A stretch of 40,308 nt of DNA from a virus (taxonomy: Duplodnaviria > Heunggongvirae > Uroviricota > Caudoviricetes): the IMG/VR virus record IMGVR_UViG_2778261673_000007; one strand, given 5' to 3'. The position numbers and the translations under genes are program-made. The notes beneath the pieces were generated by a model. That model did not search any database, was not told the DNA's origin, and saw nothing but the letters and a program-made list of their open reading frames with translations. Of this stretch, positions 8,979 to 16,505 are shown in pieces. Each line of letters starts with the position of its first letter. The stretch's first letter is position 1.

Positions 8979-9467
8979 ATGAGTCTTTTGAATGAAGTTC
9001 AGAAATTCATTGAAGCCCATCCGGGATGTACTTCCGGAGACATTGCGGATGCTTTTGCAGGTTACTCACGGCAGCGCGTTCTGCAGTCAGCAAGCAAGTT
9101 ACGTCAGAGTGGGCGTGTGGCTCACCGTTGTGAAGGAGATACACGCAGACATTTCCCGCGCCTGACTGAGAGAGCGCAGGAACCGGAATCACAACCAGTT
9201 CGAGAAACCAGACCTGTGCGCAATTTCTATGTCGGCACTAACGATCCACGGGTGATTTTGTGCCTGACCCGCCAGGCTGAAGAACTGAAGTCCAGGGGCT
9301 TATACCGTCGTGCTGCAACCGTGTGGATGGCGGCATTCCGTGAAAGCCACTCCCAGCCAGAACGAAACAATTTTCTGGCGCGTCGTGAGCGGTGCTTACG
9401 GAAAAGCAGCAAGCGCGCTGCATCGGGTGAAGAGTGGTATCTGTCAGGGAATTACGTGGGGGCTTAA
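8979..9467 (+). CDS. Hypothetical protein with possible winged-helix N-terminus (regulator?)
   Basis: ATG at 8979 after AGGGGGTG; Arg-rich C-terminus; no secure family assignment. Confidence 0.4.
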   Translation: MSLLNEVQKFIEAHPGCTSGDIADAFAGYSRQRVLQSASKLRQSGRVAHRCEGDTRRHFPRLTERAQEPESQPVRETRPVRNFYVGTNDPRVILCLTRQAEELKSRGLYRRAATVWMAAFRESHSQPERNNFLARRERCLRKSSKRAASGEEWYLSGNYVGA

Positions 9468-10120
9468 TGAGTAATAAATATTGCCAGGCGCTGGTGGAAC
9501 TGCGGAACAAACCAGTCCATGAACTGAAGGAAGTGGGCGATCAGTGGCGCACGCCGGACAACATTTTCTGGGGAATTAACACCCTGTTTGGCCCGTTTGT
9601 TCTGGATCTGTTTACTGACGGTGATAACGCCAAATGTGCCGCGTATTACACGGCGGAAGATAACGCGCTGGCGCATGACTGGTCAGAACGTCTTGCGGAG
9701 CTTAAAGGTGCTGCCTTTGGTAATCCCCCATACAGCCGCGCCAGTCAGCATGAGGGGCAATACATCACCGGCATGCGTTACATCATGAAACATGCCAGTG
9801 CCATGCGTGATAAGGGCGGGCGCTATGTTTTCCTGATCAAAGCTGCCACCAGCGAAGTGTGGTGGCCGGAAGATGCGGACCATATTGCTTTTATTCGCGG
9901 GCGTATTGGTTTTGAACTGCCTGCCTGGTTTATCCCGAAGGATGAGAAGCAGGTGCCGACAGGCGCTTTCTTCGCTGGTGCTATTGCTGTTTTCGACAAG
10001 ACCTGGAAGGGACCGGCAATCAGCTACATCGGGCGCGATGAACTTGAGGCATGTGGTGAAGCCTTTCTGGTGCAGGTTCGCCAGCAGGCGGAAAAACTGG
10101 TCAGGGAGATGGCGGCATGA
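9467..10120 (+). CDS. Phage DNA N6-adenine methyltransferase (Dam-like)
   Basis: Contains the NPPY catalytic motif (GNPPYSRAS) characteristic of N6-adenine/N4-cytosine methyltransferases; start overlaps the previous stop (TAATG). Confidence 0.75.
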   Translation: MSNKYCQALVELRNKPVHELKEVGDQWRTPDNIFWGINTLFGPFVLDLFTDGDNAKCAAYYTAEDNALAHDWSERLAELKGAAFGNPPYSRASQHEGQYITGMRYIMKHASAMRDKGGRYVFLIKAATSEVWWPEDADHIAFIRGRIGFELPAWFIPKDEKQVPTGAFFAGAIAVFDKTWKGPAISYIGRDELEACGEAFLVQVRQQAEKLVREMAA

Positions 10121-10443
10121 CGACGTTAACTCAATGCCAGCAGCAGGTGCTGGATATGCTGATTTCTTACCAGAAAGAGCGTGGCTTTCCGCCAACCAAT
10201 CAGGAGGTGGCAACCATCCTGGGATACCGTTCAGTGAATGCAGCGGTAGAGCATCTTCGTGCACTGGAGAAAAAAGGCGTCATCACGATAAAGCGTGGCG
10301 TGGCCCGGGGGATAACGCTTCATACCGCGGTGAAGGACGACGACAGCGAGGCGGTCGGGATTATCCGCGCACTGCTTGCCGGTGAGGAAAACGGCAGGCT
10401 GCGTGCAGCCCACTGGTTACATGAGAGGGGCCTGAAAGTATGA
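10117..10443 (+). CDS. LexA N-terminal DNA-binding-domain homolog lacking the S24 peptidase domain (108 aa)
   Basis: Aligns by eye with E. coli LexA residues 1-70 (...QQxV.D.I.......GxPPT..E.A..LG.RS.NAA.EHL.AL..KGVI.I..G..RGI.L); no Ala-Gly cleavage site or Ser/Lys dyad follows. Confidence 0.7.
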   Translation: MTTLTQCQQQVLDMLISYQKERGFPPTNQEVATILGYRSVNAAVEHLRALEKKGVITIKRGVARGITLHTAVKDDDSEAVGIIRALLAGEENGRLRAAHWLHERGLKV

Positions 10444-11647: not shown

Positions 11648-12643
11648 GTGACCGTGAGAGCACTACTGACCCCTGAAATTGCCCCGCGTATGGGGATCGT
11701 ATTGTTCAGACCAGGTTCAGAGCTGATGCCCTTGTTTATGCAGGGGCGTGTCCTGCTGGAGCCTGAGCCGGAACGTTATTCATCTTTCGCCAGTGGTGCC
11801 GTTCCGGCAGCATCACAACCGCTGGCGGATGATCCTGCCGTTCGGGCCGTGTTCCGCAATGAGGCAGTGATCCGTCGTGCTGGTGGAGTGGAATGTCTTG
11901 AAAGCTGGTTACTTCGTGAAAAAGGCTGCCAGTGGCCTCATTCCGACTGGCACAGCGAGAACATGACCACAATGCGACACGCGCCGGGCGCAATCCGTCT
12001 GTGCTGGCACTGCGATAACCAGCTGCGCGATCAGTTCACGGAACGGCTGGAATCAATGGCAACGGATAACTGTGCCCGCTGGATGTTGTCTGTTGTGCGT
12101 CGGGATCTCGGTTTTGATGATAGTCACGTTGTGACAATGCCGGAACTATGCTGGTGGCTGGTTCGTAATGACCTGGCGGATGCCTTACCGGAAAGTGCAG
12201 CCCGTAAGGCACTGAGATTACCGAAGCCTGTTGTGCCGTCTGCCACCCGGGAAAGTGACCTTGTTCCTTCGGTTCCTGCCACCAGCATCATCCAGGATAA
12301 AGCGAAAAAGGTGCTGGCGCTGAAAGTGGATCCGGAGTCGCCGGAGTCTTTTATGTTACGCCCCAAACGTCGCCGCTGGGTTAACGAAAAGTACACGCGC
12401 TGGGTTAAGACGCAGCCGTGCGCATGTTGTGGAAAGTCTGCTGATGATCCTCACCACCTGATAGGTCACGGTCAGGGAGGAATGGGGACAAAAACGCATG
12501 ACCTCTTTGTGTTGCCTTTGTGCAGAAAGCATCACGACGAGCTGCATGCAGATACCGTGGCATTTGAAGAGAAGTATGGCTCCCAACTGGAGCTGATATT
12601 TCGTTTTATCGATCGTGCGCTGGCAACTGGCGTGCTGGCCTGA
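11648..12643 (+). CDS. DUF968-family protein with C-terminal Cys/His cluster (NinG/HNH-like)
   Basis: C-terminal CACCGK...HHLIGHGQGG...CRKHHDELH metal-binding cluster; nin-region position; true start may be the GTG at 11654. Confidence 0.55.
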   Translation: MTVRALLTPEIAPRMGIVLFRPGSELMPLFMQGRVLLEPEPERYSSFASGAVPAASQPLADDPAVRAVFRNEAVIRRAGGVECLESWLLREKGCQWPHSDWHSENMTTMRHAPGAIRLCWHCDNQLRDQFTERLESMATDNCARWMLSVVRRDLGFDDSHVVTMPELCWWLVRNDLADALPESAARKALRLPKPVVPSATRESDLVPSVPATSIIQDKAKKVLALKVDPESPESFMLRPKRRRWVNEKYTRWVKTQPCACCGKSADDPHHLIGHGQGGMGTKTHDLFVLPLCRKHHDELHADTVAFEEKYGSQLELIFRFIDRALATGVLA

Positions 12644-12660
12644 TTTTGTGGAGAAAGTTG

Positions 12661-13023
12661 ATGCGTGATATTCAGATGGTTCTGGATCGTTGGGGAGCAT
12701 GGGCGGCGAGTGATAGTTCTGGAGTAGACTATTCTCCTATAGCTGCTGGGTTTAAAGGGCTTCTTCCCTATACAAGCAAAACACGTCAGGCTTGTTCAGA
12801 TAGTGATGCATTAATTATTGAAGGTTGTCTTGCTCTTCTTAAGAAGAGAAAACCGTATGAGCACTCTCTGATTGTGGCTCATTACCTGTATGGCATCTCG
12901 AAAAGGAAGATAGCAAAAGCATACAAAAAAGATGAGAAATTGATACGTATAGAGATACAGTTGGCTGAAGGGTTTATAGATGGTTGTCTCTCGATGCTGG
13001 ATATTCGTTTAGAAATGGAGTAA
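12661..13023 (+). CDS. Late-gene antiterminator Q (QuuD-like small Q family)
   Basis: Begins MRDIQMVLDRWGAWAA... which I recall as the N-terminus of the DLP12 QuuD-type antiterminators; position upstream of the lysis cassette; start at internal ATG with GGAGAAAG RBS. Confidence 0.65.
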   Translation: MRDIQMVLDRWGAWAASDSSGVDYSPIAAGFKGLLPYTSKTRQACSDSDALIIEGCLALLKKRKPYEHSLIVAHYLYGISKRKIAKAYKKDEKLIRIEIQLAEGFIDGCLSMLDIRLEME

Positions 13024-13033
13024 TAAAATTAAG

Positions 13034-13064
13034 GCAGCAACATAGAGTTTAACTTTGTTGCTGC
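13034..13064 (-). terminator. Rho-independent terminator for the 13074-13820 cargo gene (9-bp stem, U-rich tail on the minus strand)
   Basis: GCAGCAACA ... TGTTGCTGC inverted repeat; on the minus strand the stem is followed by CUUAAUUUUAUUA. Confidence 0.45.
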
Positions 13065-13073
13065 GTAACAGAT

Positions 13074-13820
13074 TTAATCTGGCATTATGGTAGATAATTG
13101 TGGGCTAGGTTTAACCCCGTAGGTTTCTGATATTCTTTTAACGTTGATACCTACGATTTTTCTGACAGCTCCCAACGAAAATTCTAACTCTTTAATCCCT
13201 GCGTCTTTAGAAGTGTTGTTCATATAATAACGGCATGCTTCTCGAATTGACTTGCAAACGATAAATAGAGGTGATTCATCTGGGATTTGAGAAAGCAAAG
13301 AGGTCAAACATGTTCTTAACTCTTTGAGTGATTCGGCAACAAAACAGGGGTTTTCAAGATGATATTCTACGAACAAAGCCCCTTTATCATCCAATTCATT
13401 TATAATCTTTTTTGCCAGATTTCTTTCATCATGCTGTTGAATATATTTCAAAGCATCGAAGGTAATATTAATCGAACCTTCAAGACAGGAGCTTATAAGG
13501 CTTTCATGATCTTTTTTCCATTTTCTTAATACAGGTGCCGGATAGTCTAGCCCCTGATTCTTATCTATTAATACAGAACAAGTAGCACACAGCCATATGC
13601 CATTGTTAATTGACTTCCTTTCTGTTTCTGATTGTGACATGTCATAGCGTGGGCCATCAGGAGATGCTGCACATATGTGAGCAGCAACTCCTGTCTTGAT
13701 TGATTTATTGCCATCAATTGATGGGCCAATGGTCAATCTAGGGCATGAAGGGTTTGAACAAATGAATGCTGCCCGCTCTGCTAATTTTTTTATAGTGTCT
13801 TTAGAAAAATTATGTCGCAT
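13074..13820 (-). CDS. AT-rich cargo gene: 248-aa protein with N-terminal HNH-like Cys/His nuclease motif and unknown C-terminal domain
   Basis: CSNPSC ... AAHICA ... NNGIWLCATC arrangement resembles a zinc-ribbon HNH nuclease; oriented opposite to flanking phage genes; distinctly lower GC; sits between Q and the late promoter. Confidence 0.5.
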   Translation of the reverse strand: MRHNFSKDTIKKLAERAAFICSNPSCPRLTIGPSIDGNKSIKTGVAAHICAASPDGPRYDMSQSETERKSINNGIWLCATCSVLIDKNQGLDYPAPVLRKWKKDHESLISSCLEGSINITFDALKYIQQHDERNLAKKIINELDDKGALFVEYHLENPCFVAESLKELRTCLTSLLSQIPDESPLFIVCKSIREACRYYMNNTSKDAGIKELEFSLGAVRKIVGINVKRISETYGVKPSPQLSTIMPD

Positions 13821-13912
13821 GTAGTGAACCCAATATATGAGAAAAATATTACTAACGCGGTCCGCATTTTATCATGTAATGTGTTAAGAGTGGTTACTTC
13901 GCCACACAGCTT

Positions 13913-13943
13913 AAACCCGCCGTCGAGCGGGTTTTGTCGTTTC
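13913..13943 (+). terminator. Putative tR'-type terminator downstream of the late promoter (Q-antitermination target region)
   Basis: AACCCGC-cgtcga-GCGGGTT followed by TTTTG; located between Q and the holin, where lambdoid phages place pR', qut and tR'. Confidence 0.45.
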
Positions 13944-14086
13944 TGGGGCTGGGGATTCGTTGGTCCTTGCCTATTCCGCAGTTATCCATTGGTTCGGCTT
14001 CTTTGACGTTTCCGCTTCTGATTTGCGGTACATGATGTTTCCTCAATTTGCACCTGCTGTATCAGCGAGGTGAGAGATAACTACAA

Positions 14087-14413
14087 ATGCCTCATAACCC
14101 AAATACATGGCTGGAGTTGGTCCAGAGCTGGTGGCGTGGAGACACACCGCTGGGCGCAGTGATTATGTCGATTGTTATGGCTGGTTTACGTATTGCCTAT
14201 TTTGGCGGTGGTGGCGGCTGGAAACGAAAAACACTCGAAATTCTACTCTGTGGCGCTCTGACGCTGACTTTCGCATCCGCTCTTGAGTATGTCGGATGGC
14301 CTAAATCACTATCTGTTGCCATTGGTGGTGGGGTGGGGCTGATCGGTGTTGATGCTATTCGTGGGGCTGCAATGAGAGTAATCGGTAACAAGTTTGGTGG
14401 CTCTAAGGAGTAA
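14087..14413 (+). CDS. Holin (lambda S-like)
   Basis: 108 aa, hydrophobic helices with a charged C-terminus; resembles lambda S in the ...GGG...TLTFASALEYVG...IGVDAIRG region; immediately precedes the endolysin. Confidence 0.8.
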   Translation: MPHNPNTWLELVQSWWRGDTPLGAVIMSIVMAGLRIAYFGGGGGWKRKTLEILLCGALTLTFASALEYVGWPKSLSVAIGGGVGLIGVDAIRGAAMRVIGNKFGGSKE

Positions 14414-15338: not shown

Positions 15339-15386
15339 CCTTGACTATTTGACAGTTGTTAAATGTTTTCTCCAAATGGGGAGAGA

Positions 15387-16076
15387 ATGATGAGAATTTT
15401 TGGGTGCGGTGTTTTAGTTAGTGTCGTTTATTTCTTTGGCTTAGGTATTACGATCCATGTTCTTGATTTGAACCAGATGACGTCGTGGAATGAGTTTGGA
15501 GATTTTCTTGCTGGTGCATTTTCCCCAGTGGCCTTTTTTTGGCTTGTGCTTGGGTATTTACAGCAACAAAAAGAACTACAGCAAAATACTGAAGCGTTAA
15601 AGTTACAAGCCACTGAGTTGAAAAACTCAGTCGAACAATATAAAGAGATGGTTTCCGTTTCTAAACAGCAATTAGAAAATGAATCAATCAAAGCCATGAC
15701 AGAAAGGCTGGAAAGAGAAAAAGAAACGAAGCCTGATCTATATATGTTGAATCTGGGATGGTCAGTTAAAAGTGGTGATCAGTATGAGTATAATTGGTCG
15801 GTATTTAGTGATGGTAAAACAGCGAAAAATATAAGCTTAACTTTTGACCCTCCTATCGGGGAATATAGCTCGCATTTTTTTAGAAGTAGCAATGGCGCAA
15901 TTAAACTTCCTAAAAATAAAATAAATGCTGGAGATGTGCCTGAACATTTTCGGGTCGTTTTGACTTATGAGAGTATATTGGGGTATTCGTATGAATCTGA
16001 ATATCATTATGAGCATGATATGAATGGTATGTATAATTTAATTGATTCTGCTGATTATCAGCGAACAAAGATTTAA
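15387..16076 (+). CDS. AT-rich cargo gene: two-TM membrane protein with coiled-coil and unknown C-terminal domain
   Basis: Start taken at the ATG pair following GGGGAGAG; two hydrophobic helices, a Q/E/K-rich coiled-coil stretch, then a Tyr-rich C-terminal domain; strong terminator follows; low GC. Confidence 0.5.
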   Translation: MMRIFGCGVLVSVVYFFGLGITIHVLDLNQMTSWNEFGDFLAGAFSPVAFFWLVLGYLQQQKELQQNTEALKLQATELKNSVEQYKEMVSVSKQQLENESIKAMTERLEREKETKPDLYMLNLGWSVKSGDQYEYNWSVFSDGKTAKNISLTFDPPIGEYSSHFFRSSNGAIKLPKNKINAGDVPEHFRVVLTYESILGYSYESEYHYEHDMNGMYNLIDSADYQRTKI

Positions 16077-16154: not shown

Positions 16155-16505
16155 ATGCCCCCACGAACCCCAAAAGCCTGCCGCGTTCGCGGTTGCCGCA
16201 ATACCACTACTGACCCGTCAGGCTATTGTGAAAGCCATAAAAGCGAAGGCTGGAAGCAATACAAGCCAGGACAATCCCGTCATCAGCGCGGCTACGGTTC
16301 GAAATGGGATGCTATCCGTGAACGTGTACTGAAACGTGACAAAGGTTTATGTCAGTTATGTCTGCGTGCCGGTGTGGTGCGTGAAGCGAAAACCGTTGAC
16401 CACATCATCCCTAAAGCGCATGGCGGCACTGATGCCGACTGTAATCTGCAGAGTCTGTGCTGGCCGTGTCATAAGGCGAAGACGGCCCGTGAACGGTTGA
16501 AGTGA
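16155..16505 (+). CDS. HNH endonuclease (terminase-associated)
   Basis: CxxC...H...N...H...CxxC pattern (CRVRGCRN ... DHIIPKAHGGTDADCNLQSLCWPCH); located just upstream of terminase genes as in HK97-like packaging modules. Confidence 0.8.
   Translation: MPPRTPKACRVRGCRNTTTDPSGYCESHKSEGWKQYKPGQSRHQRGYGSKWDAIRERVLKRDKGLCQLCLRAGVVREAKTVDHIIPKAHGGTDADCNLQSLCWPCHKAKTARERLK

Follow-up and report, generated by a model that had tools for sequence, protein, structure and literature searches.

The stretch of DNA analysed herein (the window: 40,308 nucleotides, IMG/VR virus record IMGVR_UViG_2778261673_000007, Caudoviricetes) carries, between the antiterminator gene Q and the lysis genes of a prophage, a reverse-strand gene whose product joins an N-terminal nuclease domain of the HNH type to a C-terminal domain of the Pfam family DUF6650 (Table 1). 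The open reading frame (ORF) listing of the window gives this HNH-DUF6650 gene an ATG start and a product of 248 aa. The protein is identical to WP_001406331.1, which the Prokaryotic Genome Annotation Pipeline (PGAP) names either "hypothetical protein" or "DUF6650 family protein" depending on the record, and the DNA is 100% identical in Escherichia coli chromosomes. It is a real gene, not a chance ORF, because homologues in several phyla have the same start, MR(H/D)NF, and align with it from end to end, at 45-95% identity; the full-length homologues spread over several phyla lie at 45-56%.

The gene is carried by an SfII/SfIV-like prophage whose early region is lambdoid, whose head is of the HK97 type and whose tail is contractile; in strain S56, its integration site adjoins tRNA-Thr and proA. 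To the left of the gene lies Q (PF06530, 6.6e-52), with which it stands tail-to-tail, and to the right lie the lambda-family holin gene S (PF05106, 5.7e-25) and then the endolysin and Rz genes. GC content is 0.35-0.41 across 12900-13800, compared with 0.53-0.59 on both sides; for the ORF itself it is ~0.36, versus ~0.55 in the flanks. Further, homology to phage cdtI stops at ~13028, ~5 bp past the Q stop codon, and a block common to SfIV and SfII, conserved upstream of holin S, begins at ~13841, so the segment between these limits is specific to the cargo. The Q-to-lysis slot is also the site of the Shiga toxin genes in Shiga toxin phages. In SfIV and cdtI, other reverse-strand cargo occupies the Q-to-holin slot. 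These results bear out the original prediction, made from the letters of the window, of a reverse-oriented, AT-rich, single-gene cargo in a Q-to-lysis interval that serves as a cargo site, and they add a defined example of defence-type cargo in that slot of SfII/SfIV-like prophages.

Among 5426 complete E. coli genomes, 24 hold the full cargo, and a query spanning 13024-14086 has a partial match in 2600. In viral contigs, the HNH-DUF6650 gene recurs in the Q-lysis slot, convergent with Q and upstream of the lysis genes, and the slot is kept in a Buttiauxella prophage (56% protein identity) and in another prophage (83%). The prophage of Buttiauxella gaviniae has an additional 347-aa ORF (L002, 3306-4349, minus strand) between the HNH-DUF6650 gene and the lysis genes. 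The Q-to-holin slot of SfIV contains gp48 and gp49, and that of cdtI contains orf53 and orf54, the latter encoding a DUF6731 protein; no PADLOC model matched any of these four, nor the cargo that strain S56 carries in a second slot (see the last section).

Table 1. Features of the window discussed in the text (positions count from the first letter of the window; a dot marks a feature without strand).
Feature	Position	Strand	Basis or remark
HNH-DUF6650 fusion coding sequence	13074..13820	-	ORF; 100% DNA identity with annotated E. coli genes; at least 120 full-length homologues
Cap5-type HNH (beta-beta-alpha-metal) nuclease domain, residues 1-114	13479..13820	-	
DUF6650 (PF20355) helical domain, residues ~128-248	13077..13439	-	PGAP name, PF20355.5, profile searches
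Cargo-specific AT-rich segment (moron)	~13029-13840	.	between homology limits; GC profile
GC-rich 9-bp hairpin between the convergent Q and cargo stop codons (50 bp apart)	13034-13064	-	putative terminator, possibly bidirectional
Divergent intergenic region	13821..13912	.	deduced from gene layout and the terminator-like site just downstream
Terminator-like hairpin AAACCCGC...GCGGGTTT, then T-run	13913-13934	+	upstream of holin S
Antiterminator Q	12646-13023	+	PF06530
Holin S	14087-14413	+	PF05106
Phage N6-adenine methyltransferase, then 108-aa LexA-family protein	9434-10443	+	early region
DUF968/HNHc_6 protein	11648-12643	+	just upstream of Q
Second AT-rich cargo gene	15363-16076	+	GC ~0.34-0.39; between Rz and the HNH/terminase genes
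116-aa HNH endonuclease	16155-16505	+	just upstream of the P27-family small terminase

A Cap5-type HNH domain joined to DUF6650

The HNH-like motif that the original prediction had recognized at the N-terminus is confirmed and can be sharpened to a Cap5-type HNH domain of the immune-effector kind. PADLOC profiles for endonuclease effectors of the cyclic-oligonucleotide-based antiphage signalling system (CBASS), for SAVED-HNH, for PDC-M68A and for the HNH-bearing Shedu protein SduA match residues 1 to ~115-130 at E-values (E) of 7.5e-27 to 4.7e-8. A sequence search of the PDB with the window protein returned the Cap5 chains 8ysq, 7rwk and 7rwm and also 9om4, and a structure search with an AlphaFold2 (AF2) monomer model (predicted local distance difference test, pLDDT, 88.5) found that the fold of the domain resembles Cap5. 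The general base of PsCap5 is His56, and its catalytic Mg is bound by His91 and Asp95 (PMC12141522). Across 47 homologues of the window protein, the counterparts of His56 (H48, in the alignment of the Cap5 AHI motif) and of Asp95 (D86) are invariant, as are N73, N88, C21, C26, C78 and C81. The counterpart of His91, S82, is Ser or Ala, and N88 may take its place as a ligand. The four Cys suggest a putative structural Zn site, a point of difference from Cap5, as zinc goes unmentioned in the Cap5 paper (PMC12141522). Because H48, D86, N73, N88 and the four Cys are invariant, the HNH domain is under selection as an enzyme, which by homology would be a DNase.

The likeness to Cap5 (HNH-SAVED; PsCap5, 8FMF/9DIF; AsCap5, 7RWK) covers the sequence and fold of this domain, and the matches to the HNH-SAVED profile and to the Cap5 chains end at about residue 115 of the window protein. 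The C-terminus of Cap5 is SAVED, whereas that of the window protein is the helical DUF6650. Further, a CBASS Cap5 operon has a CD-NTase, whereas none lies near the window gene, and the PGAP-annotated prophage genes include no CD-NTase-like product. The HNH module itself is shared with other proteins. The PADLOC candidate PDC-M68A matches it at 7.5e-27, over positions 1-130 only of a 253-position profile, and "lysogenic conversion" proteins of the P2 hotspot (in P2-EC46 and Yersinia phage vB_YenM_31.17) are 50-52% identical to residues 2-109. These, too, are cargo of temperate-phage hotspots, but their C-terminal halves are unrelated to that of the window protein. We take the "M" in PDC-M68 to mark a multi-gene candidate; the window protein has no full-length match to PDC-M68A, and no conserved second gene lies near its homologues.

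The C-terminal domain, which had been left as unknown, is DUF6650 by profile comparison. An alignment of residues 116-248 alone (profile A2), used in an exhaustive search over representative proteins, matched 1189 of them, 490 with E <= 1e-10, whereas a word-indexed search with the C-terminal profile gave 10. Among the best 150 of the 1189 matches, the majority were stand-alone proteins of 150-190 aa, and 7 of 10 matches scanned lay above the Pfam cut-off for DUF6650 (57-65 bits versus a cut-off of 27). Compared by hhalign with 60 canonical DUF6650 proteins, A2 aligned over the whole domain (probability 99.95%, E 1.7e-38). The local Pfam model, PF20355.3, gave no DUF6650 match in the window protein at E <= 1 and only sub-threshold matches in some homologues, and across the C-terminus of that protein the local scans with Pfam and NCBIfam returned only noise. 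A precomputed PF20355.5 match is present in all 120 full-length homologues among the matches listed, and the older PF20355.3 model under-reports the HNH-DUF6650 family. The fold of the domain is a four-helix bundle, for which a structure search returned only generic four-helix bundles and no informative solved relative. Six residues (E156, S164, R169, C196, R197 and R220) are conserved alike in the HNH-fused, the stand-alone and the TIR-linked members of DUF6650.

Variants on these architectures were also seen. In one protein of 351 aa (P0149), an extra N-terminal region of ~100 aa precedes the HNH-DUF6650 core, and two DUF6650 proteins (P0160 and P0209) have one or two hydrophobic helices.

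Relatives of the DUF6650 domain and surroundings of the family

DUF6650 has only just been tied to immunity, through two systems. The first is type VI Thoeris, which consists of a TIR protein, ThsB, and a DUF6650 effector, ThsG (December 2025 preprint, 10.64898/2025.12.03.692087). Upon infection, the ThsB TIR produces 2'cADPR, a form of cyclic ADP-ribose (cADPR), to which ThsG responds specifically, and supplied 2'cADPR arrests cells that bear the system. ThsG is modelled as a hexameric tube with positively charged pockets, the authors call the toxicity route of ThsG without membrane helices unclear, and the words "HNH" and "nuclease" are both absent from the main text of the preprint (10.64898/2025.12.03.692087). 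Eighty metagenomic loci of stand-alone canonical DUF6650 were retrieved with a 16-sequence subset of the 60-sequence alignment. A type-VI-like ThsB TIR lies directly downstream in three of them, and the three TIR-adjacent proteins, which lack transmembrane (TM) helices, align along the whole length of the window C-terminal domain and score 76-86 bits against its profile. Because of these scores and of the shared conserved residues, the C-terminal domain is, on sequence comparison, a genuine homologue of TM-less ThsG-type proteins, with the polar site kept. ThsG and the C-terminal domain belong to the same Pfam family and have a polar core in common, but ThsG has an adjacent ThsB TIR, whereas the window gene has none and is fused to HNH instead. 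Some of the DUF6650 loci without a TIR neighbour adjoin subunits of type I restriction-modification systems (Methylase_S, HSDR_N, ResIII), and others adjoin unrelated genes.

The tested E. coli ThsG has transmembrane helices and is encoded in a hotspot of a P2-like prophage, with its TIR gene immediately downstream; the system (L085/L086, 3270-4618) sits between the side of the gpA replication gene and the portal gene, and P2-borne type VI Thoeris is found in 42 of 5426 E. coli genomes. Its similarity to the window domain is very remote. In the local Pfam, the E. coli ThsG has no DUF6650 detectable by HMMER, nor does it have a precomputed Pfam match, and its published DUF6650 label probably rests on a remote-homology method.

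The second system comes from DefensePredictor, which newly links five domains of unknown function, DUF6650 among them, to defence (Science 2026, PMC13092281). Its supplement attributes the domain to DS-27 (SMEK + DUF6650), a single-gene system that is listed as a validated one-gene defence construct in E. coli MG1655 and in which the DUF6650 call is an HHpred match of probability 0.88 (PMC13092281). The supplement also lists WP_001406331.1 itself as a "predicted novel defense gene" (log-odds ~8.6), with type II HNH restriction enzymes as the nearest known class; among the supplementary files searched, the protein figures in the prediction table only, with no record of a test found (PMC13092281). 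DS-27 is like the window gene in being a single E. coli gene without a partner, with an N-terminal module and a C-terminal region annotated as DUF6650. It differs in its N-terminus, which is SMEK (SMEK_N matches DS-27 at 1.6e-22), whereas that of the window protein is HNH, without a SMEK_N match.

The surroundings of the family were sampled in 28 full-length loci on one-genome-per-species contigs, from Gammaproteobacteria, Betaproteobacteria, Alphaproteobacteria, Bacteroidota, Cyanobacteria, Acidobacteriota and Clostridia. No neighbour is conserved among the 28, and the sole common family is the HNH-DUF6650 gene itself. An apparent neighbour cluster shared by nine loci was rejected, as it consisted of antisense ORFs within the HNH-DUF6650 gene. 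The neighbours include integrases, RepB, methyltransferases (2 of 142 neighbours), PIN, LmuB, GajB, SduA and STAND NTPases, and the homologues often lie in prophages or defence islands.

Possible functions of the HNH-DUF6650 protein

Taken together, the identities of the two domains, the conservation of the catalytic residues and of the DUF6650 core, the stand-alone organization of the gene and its recurrence in prophages and defence islands point to a prophage-borne, one-gene immune effector, in which a Cap5-type HNH DNase would be gated by DUF6650 and would act by abortive infection or exclusion. This is the reading with the best support, and we consider its chances to be about even. It rests on homology, on genomic context and on the published machine-learning prediction for WP_001406331.1. 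A possible course of events can be drawn by analogy with Cap5 (SAVED ligand, tetramers, HNH cutting) and ThsG (2'cADPR, modelled hexamer), in which the HNH DNase is probably kept off by, and activated through, the C-terminal DUF6650. First, the lysogen would transcribe the gene from a promoter of its own, against the late operon. Second, on infection by another phage, DUF6650 would receive a cue, for which a cADPR-family small nucleotide is the leading candidate and E156, S164, R169, R197 and R220 are a candidate ligand pocket. Third, the protein would oligomerize, a step that ligand binding triggers in Cap5 and that is modelled for ThsG. Finally, the HNH domains would cleave DNA non-specifically, which would end the infection by sacrificing the cell or keep the incoming genome out. 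The cue is the weakest link of this model: homology and the conserved Arg-rich core suggest a cADPR-type ligand, and, since no TIR partner was found, the signal would be made in trans or the infection sensed directly.

Several results weigh against such an effector. With regard to a TIR-made signal, a phmmer search with four type VI TIR queries found none in the window or in 80 HNH loci (~8 kb around each gene), other TIR families being covered by a partial Pfam summary only; the same search recovered all positive controls and the three stand-alone DUF6650 loci. The PGAP annotation of the S56 prophage likewise has no product named TIR. Among the 24 cargo-bearing E. coli genomes, only one (strain LT2-3) has type VI Thoeris, with 0.19 expected, so a source of cADPR is not evident, and the co-occurrence is not meaningful. 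The great majority of the canonical DUF6650 loci (77 of 80) have no such TIR neighbour; most DUF6650 genes thus appear to lie outside recognizable Thoeris operons, a TIR signal is not the rule for DUF6650, and ligand gating may not be general. With regard to the published relatives, a direct comparison of the E. coli TM-ThsG with the C-terminal domain found no similarity, and a profile built from 14 ThsG sequences gave E 5.8e-4 (probability 29%) with canonical DUF6650 and E 0.025 with the HNH-fused family. Since these scores are weak, we make no claim that the tested ThsG proteins are close kin. DS-27, too, showed no similarity to the C-terminal profile (hhalign probability 0.3). With regard to the enzyme, the family has Ser or Ala where Cap5 has the Mg ligand His91, and, because the two metal sites thus differ, DNase activity is not certain. 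The consensus promoter scan described in the next section gave no promoter for the cargo gene, and we infer the defence role, the nuclease activity, the gating, the oligomerization, the trigger and the expression in the lysogen alike.

A second idea, tentative and somewhat unlikely as we judge it, is that the protein is the same defence nuclease working without a diffusible signal, with DUF6650 either serving as an oligomerization scaffold or sensing a phage protein or nucleic acid directly. Sensor and effector would then be wholly self-sufficient in one protein, as seems to be the case for DS-27, which DefensePredictor lists as validated in MG1655 from a single-gene construct. The 28 full-length loci without a TIR or any conserved partner nearby, the TIR-less majority of canonical DUF6650 loci and the lack of a meaningful association with type VI Thoeris among E. 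coli genomes all agree with it. However, the Arg/Glu/Ser core is common to the TIR-linked members, which suggests that the same ligand site has been kept, and DS-27 is a weak precedent because it is not detectably similar to the window domain.

A variant of the gated effector on which we would put less weight still, and which is unlikely as matters stand, is an orphan receptor-effector of the Thoeris type, in which the HNH DNase would be switched on when DUF6650 binds 2'cADPR or a similar TIR product from another source (a TIR protein encoded by the host chromosome, another prophage or a neighbouring defence system, for instance). If this were true, bacterial immune signalling would work in trans between separately inherited modules, and DUF6650 would be the nucleotide-sensing and oligomerizing part of ThsG, which would help to explain ThsG proteins without TM helices.

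Restriction is a lesser candidate, and an improbable one. Here, the protein would be a modification-dependent type IV (McrA-like) or a constitutive restriction nuclease, with the C-terminal domain as a reader of DNA or of its modification, and would act against modified DNA of incoming phages. Single-gene type IV HNH enzymes are common on mobile elements, the HNH core (and that core only) has weak fold similarity to the HNH domains of EcoKMcrA and ScoMcrA (Foldseek E 0.3-0.9), and DefensePredictor gives type II HNH restriction enzymes as the nearest known class. Yet the HNH domain resembles Cap5 far more than it does McrA, the four-helix bundle of DUF6650 bears no resemblance to known modification readers, and no methyltransferase is conserved nearby. 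The version in which the nuclease is paired with a methyltransferase was rejected on this last ground.

Poorer support exists for a role in the service of the phage, which we regard as very improbable: either counter-defence, with DUF6650 acting as a sponge for the Thoeris signal, or a nuclease for the lytic cycle of the prophage itself. The gene is phage-borne, a stand-alone phage protein family, phrog_29952, matches the C-terminal domain (4.5e-6), and the cADPR sponges Tad1 and Tad2 are known in phages (10.64898/2025.12.03.692087). Against this, the gene opposes the late operon and is not part of the early one, its homologues are found mainly in non-phage chromosomal contexts beside defence genes, and a sponge would not need invariant nuclease residues. 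Least credible of all, and rejected, is the idea of a free-standing homing endonuclease, which would cut Q-S junctions that lack the cargo and spread in this way: the HNH domain and the sporadic presence at one intergenic site (24 genomes, versus 2600 that match part of the Q-S interval) would suit it, but the flanks are unrelated across the 28 loci and several phyla, so that the adjacent target gene by which the original prediction proposed to recognize a homing enzyme is not seen, and similarity to phage homing HNH proteins is marginal (best viral structural match E 0.08), DUF6650 is linked to immunity and its fusion to HNH is conserved, and the orientation is against lytic transcription.

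The individual domains, the idea of a sensor-gated HNH effector and the machine-learning flag on WP_001406331.1 were already known; the HNH-DUF6650 architecture, its orphan status and its residence in the Q-lysis slot were not found in the searched literature that mentions DUF6650. The conserved fusion to a Cap5-type DNase argues that DUF6650 can be a regulatory or sensor module that drives a separate killing domain. Because the predicted output of the fusion, DNA cleavage, is easy to assay, the family offers a handle on the role of DUF6650, and, being TIR-less, a test case for non-TIR cues or for signals supplied in trans.

Signals around the gene and other observations in the window

On the minus strand, the hairpin that separates the stop codons of Q and the cargo gene is followed by a U-rich tract, CUUAAUUUUAUU. 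The RNA fold reaches -18 kcal/mol (z = -4.87), none of 200 shuffles was equally stable, and the hairpin had escaped a consensus terminator scan because its loop exceeds 8 nt. The original prediction had given the gene its own terminator, and the hairpin plausibly is one; the structure and its U-rich tract are there, and termination as such is plausible rather than proven. The second hairpin falls within the block conserved in SfIV and SfII, as context outside the cargo, and is a candidate tR' site that would be read through by Q. The divergent intergenic region between the gene and this hairpin is expected to hold two promoters, that of the cargo gene on the minus strand and the Q-dependent late one on the plus strand. 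A pR'/tR' arrangement to the right of the HNH-DUF6650 gene fits the sequence, given the tR'-like hairpin and the start of the conserved block. On this layout, the late promoter would stand to the right of the cargo, in keeping with the original prediction; a sigma-70 consensus scan of 12900-14200 on both strands had no match and located neither promoter. An Rfam search of the window gave no match.

The second AT-rich cargo gene encodes a 237-aa protein that has a hydrophobic N-terminal segment and a coiled-coil region. The protein matches phrog_9267, a family of unknown function, at 1e-42, and no PADLOC or NCBIfam model matches it. The gene is present in the otherwise near-identical prophages L194, L196 and L200, absent from L193 and from strain GCUET01, and replaced in strain S56 by two reverse-strand ORFs. 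Because it is present, absent or replaced among otherwise near-identical prophages, its position is an independent second cargo slot.

An HNH endonuclease beside a small terminase, such as the 116-aa protein of the window, is the usual packaging-associated arrangement. This protein and the DUF968/HNHc_6 protein upstream of Q look ordinary and unrelated to the HNH-DUF6650 gene. The N6-adenine methyltransferase of the early region, which is followed by the LexA-family protein, is an unlikely partner of the cargo, as it is not conserved near the cargo homologues.

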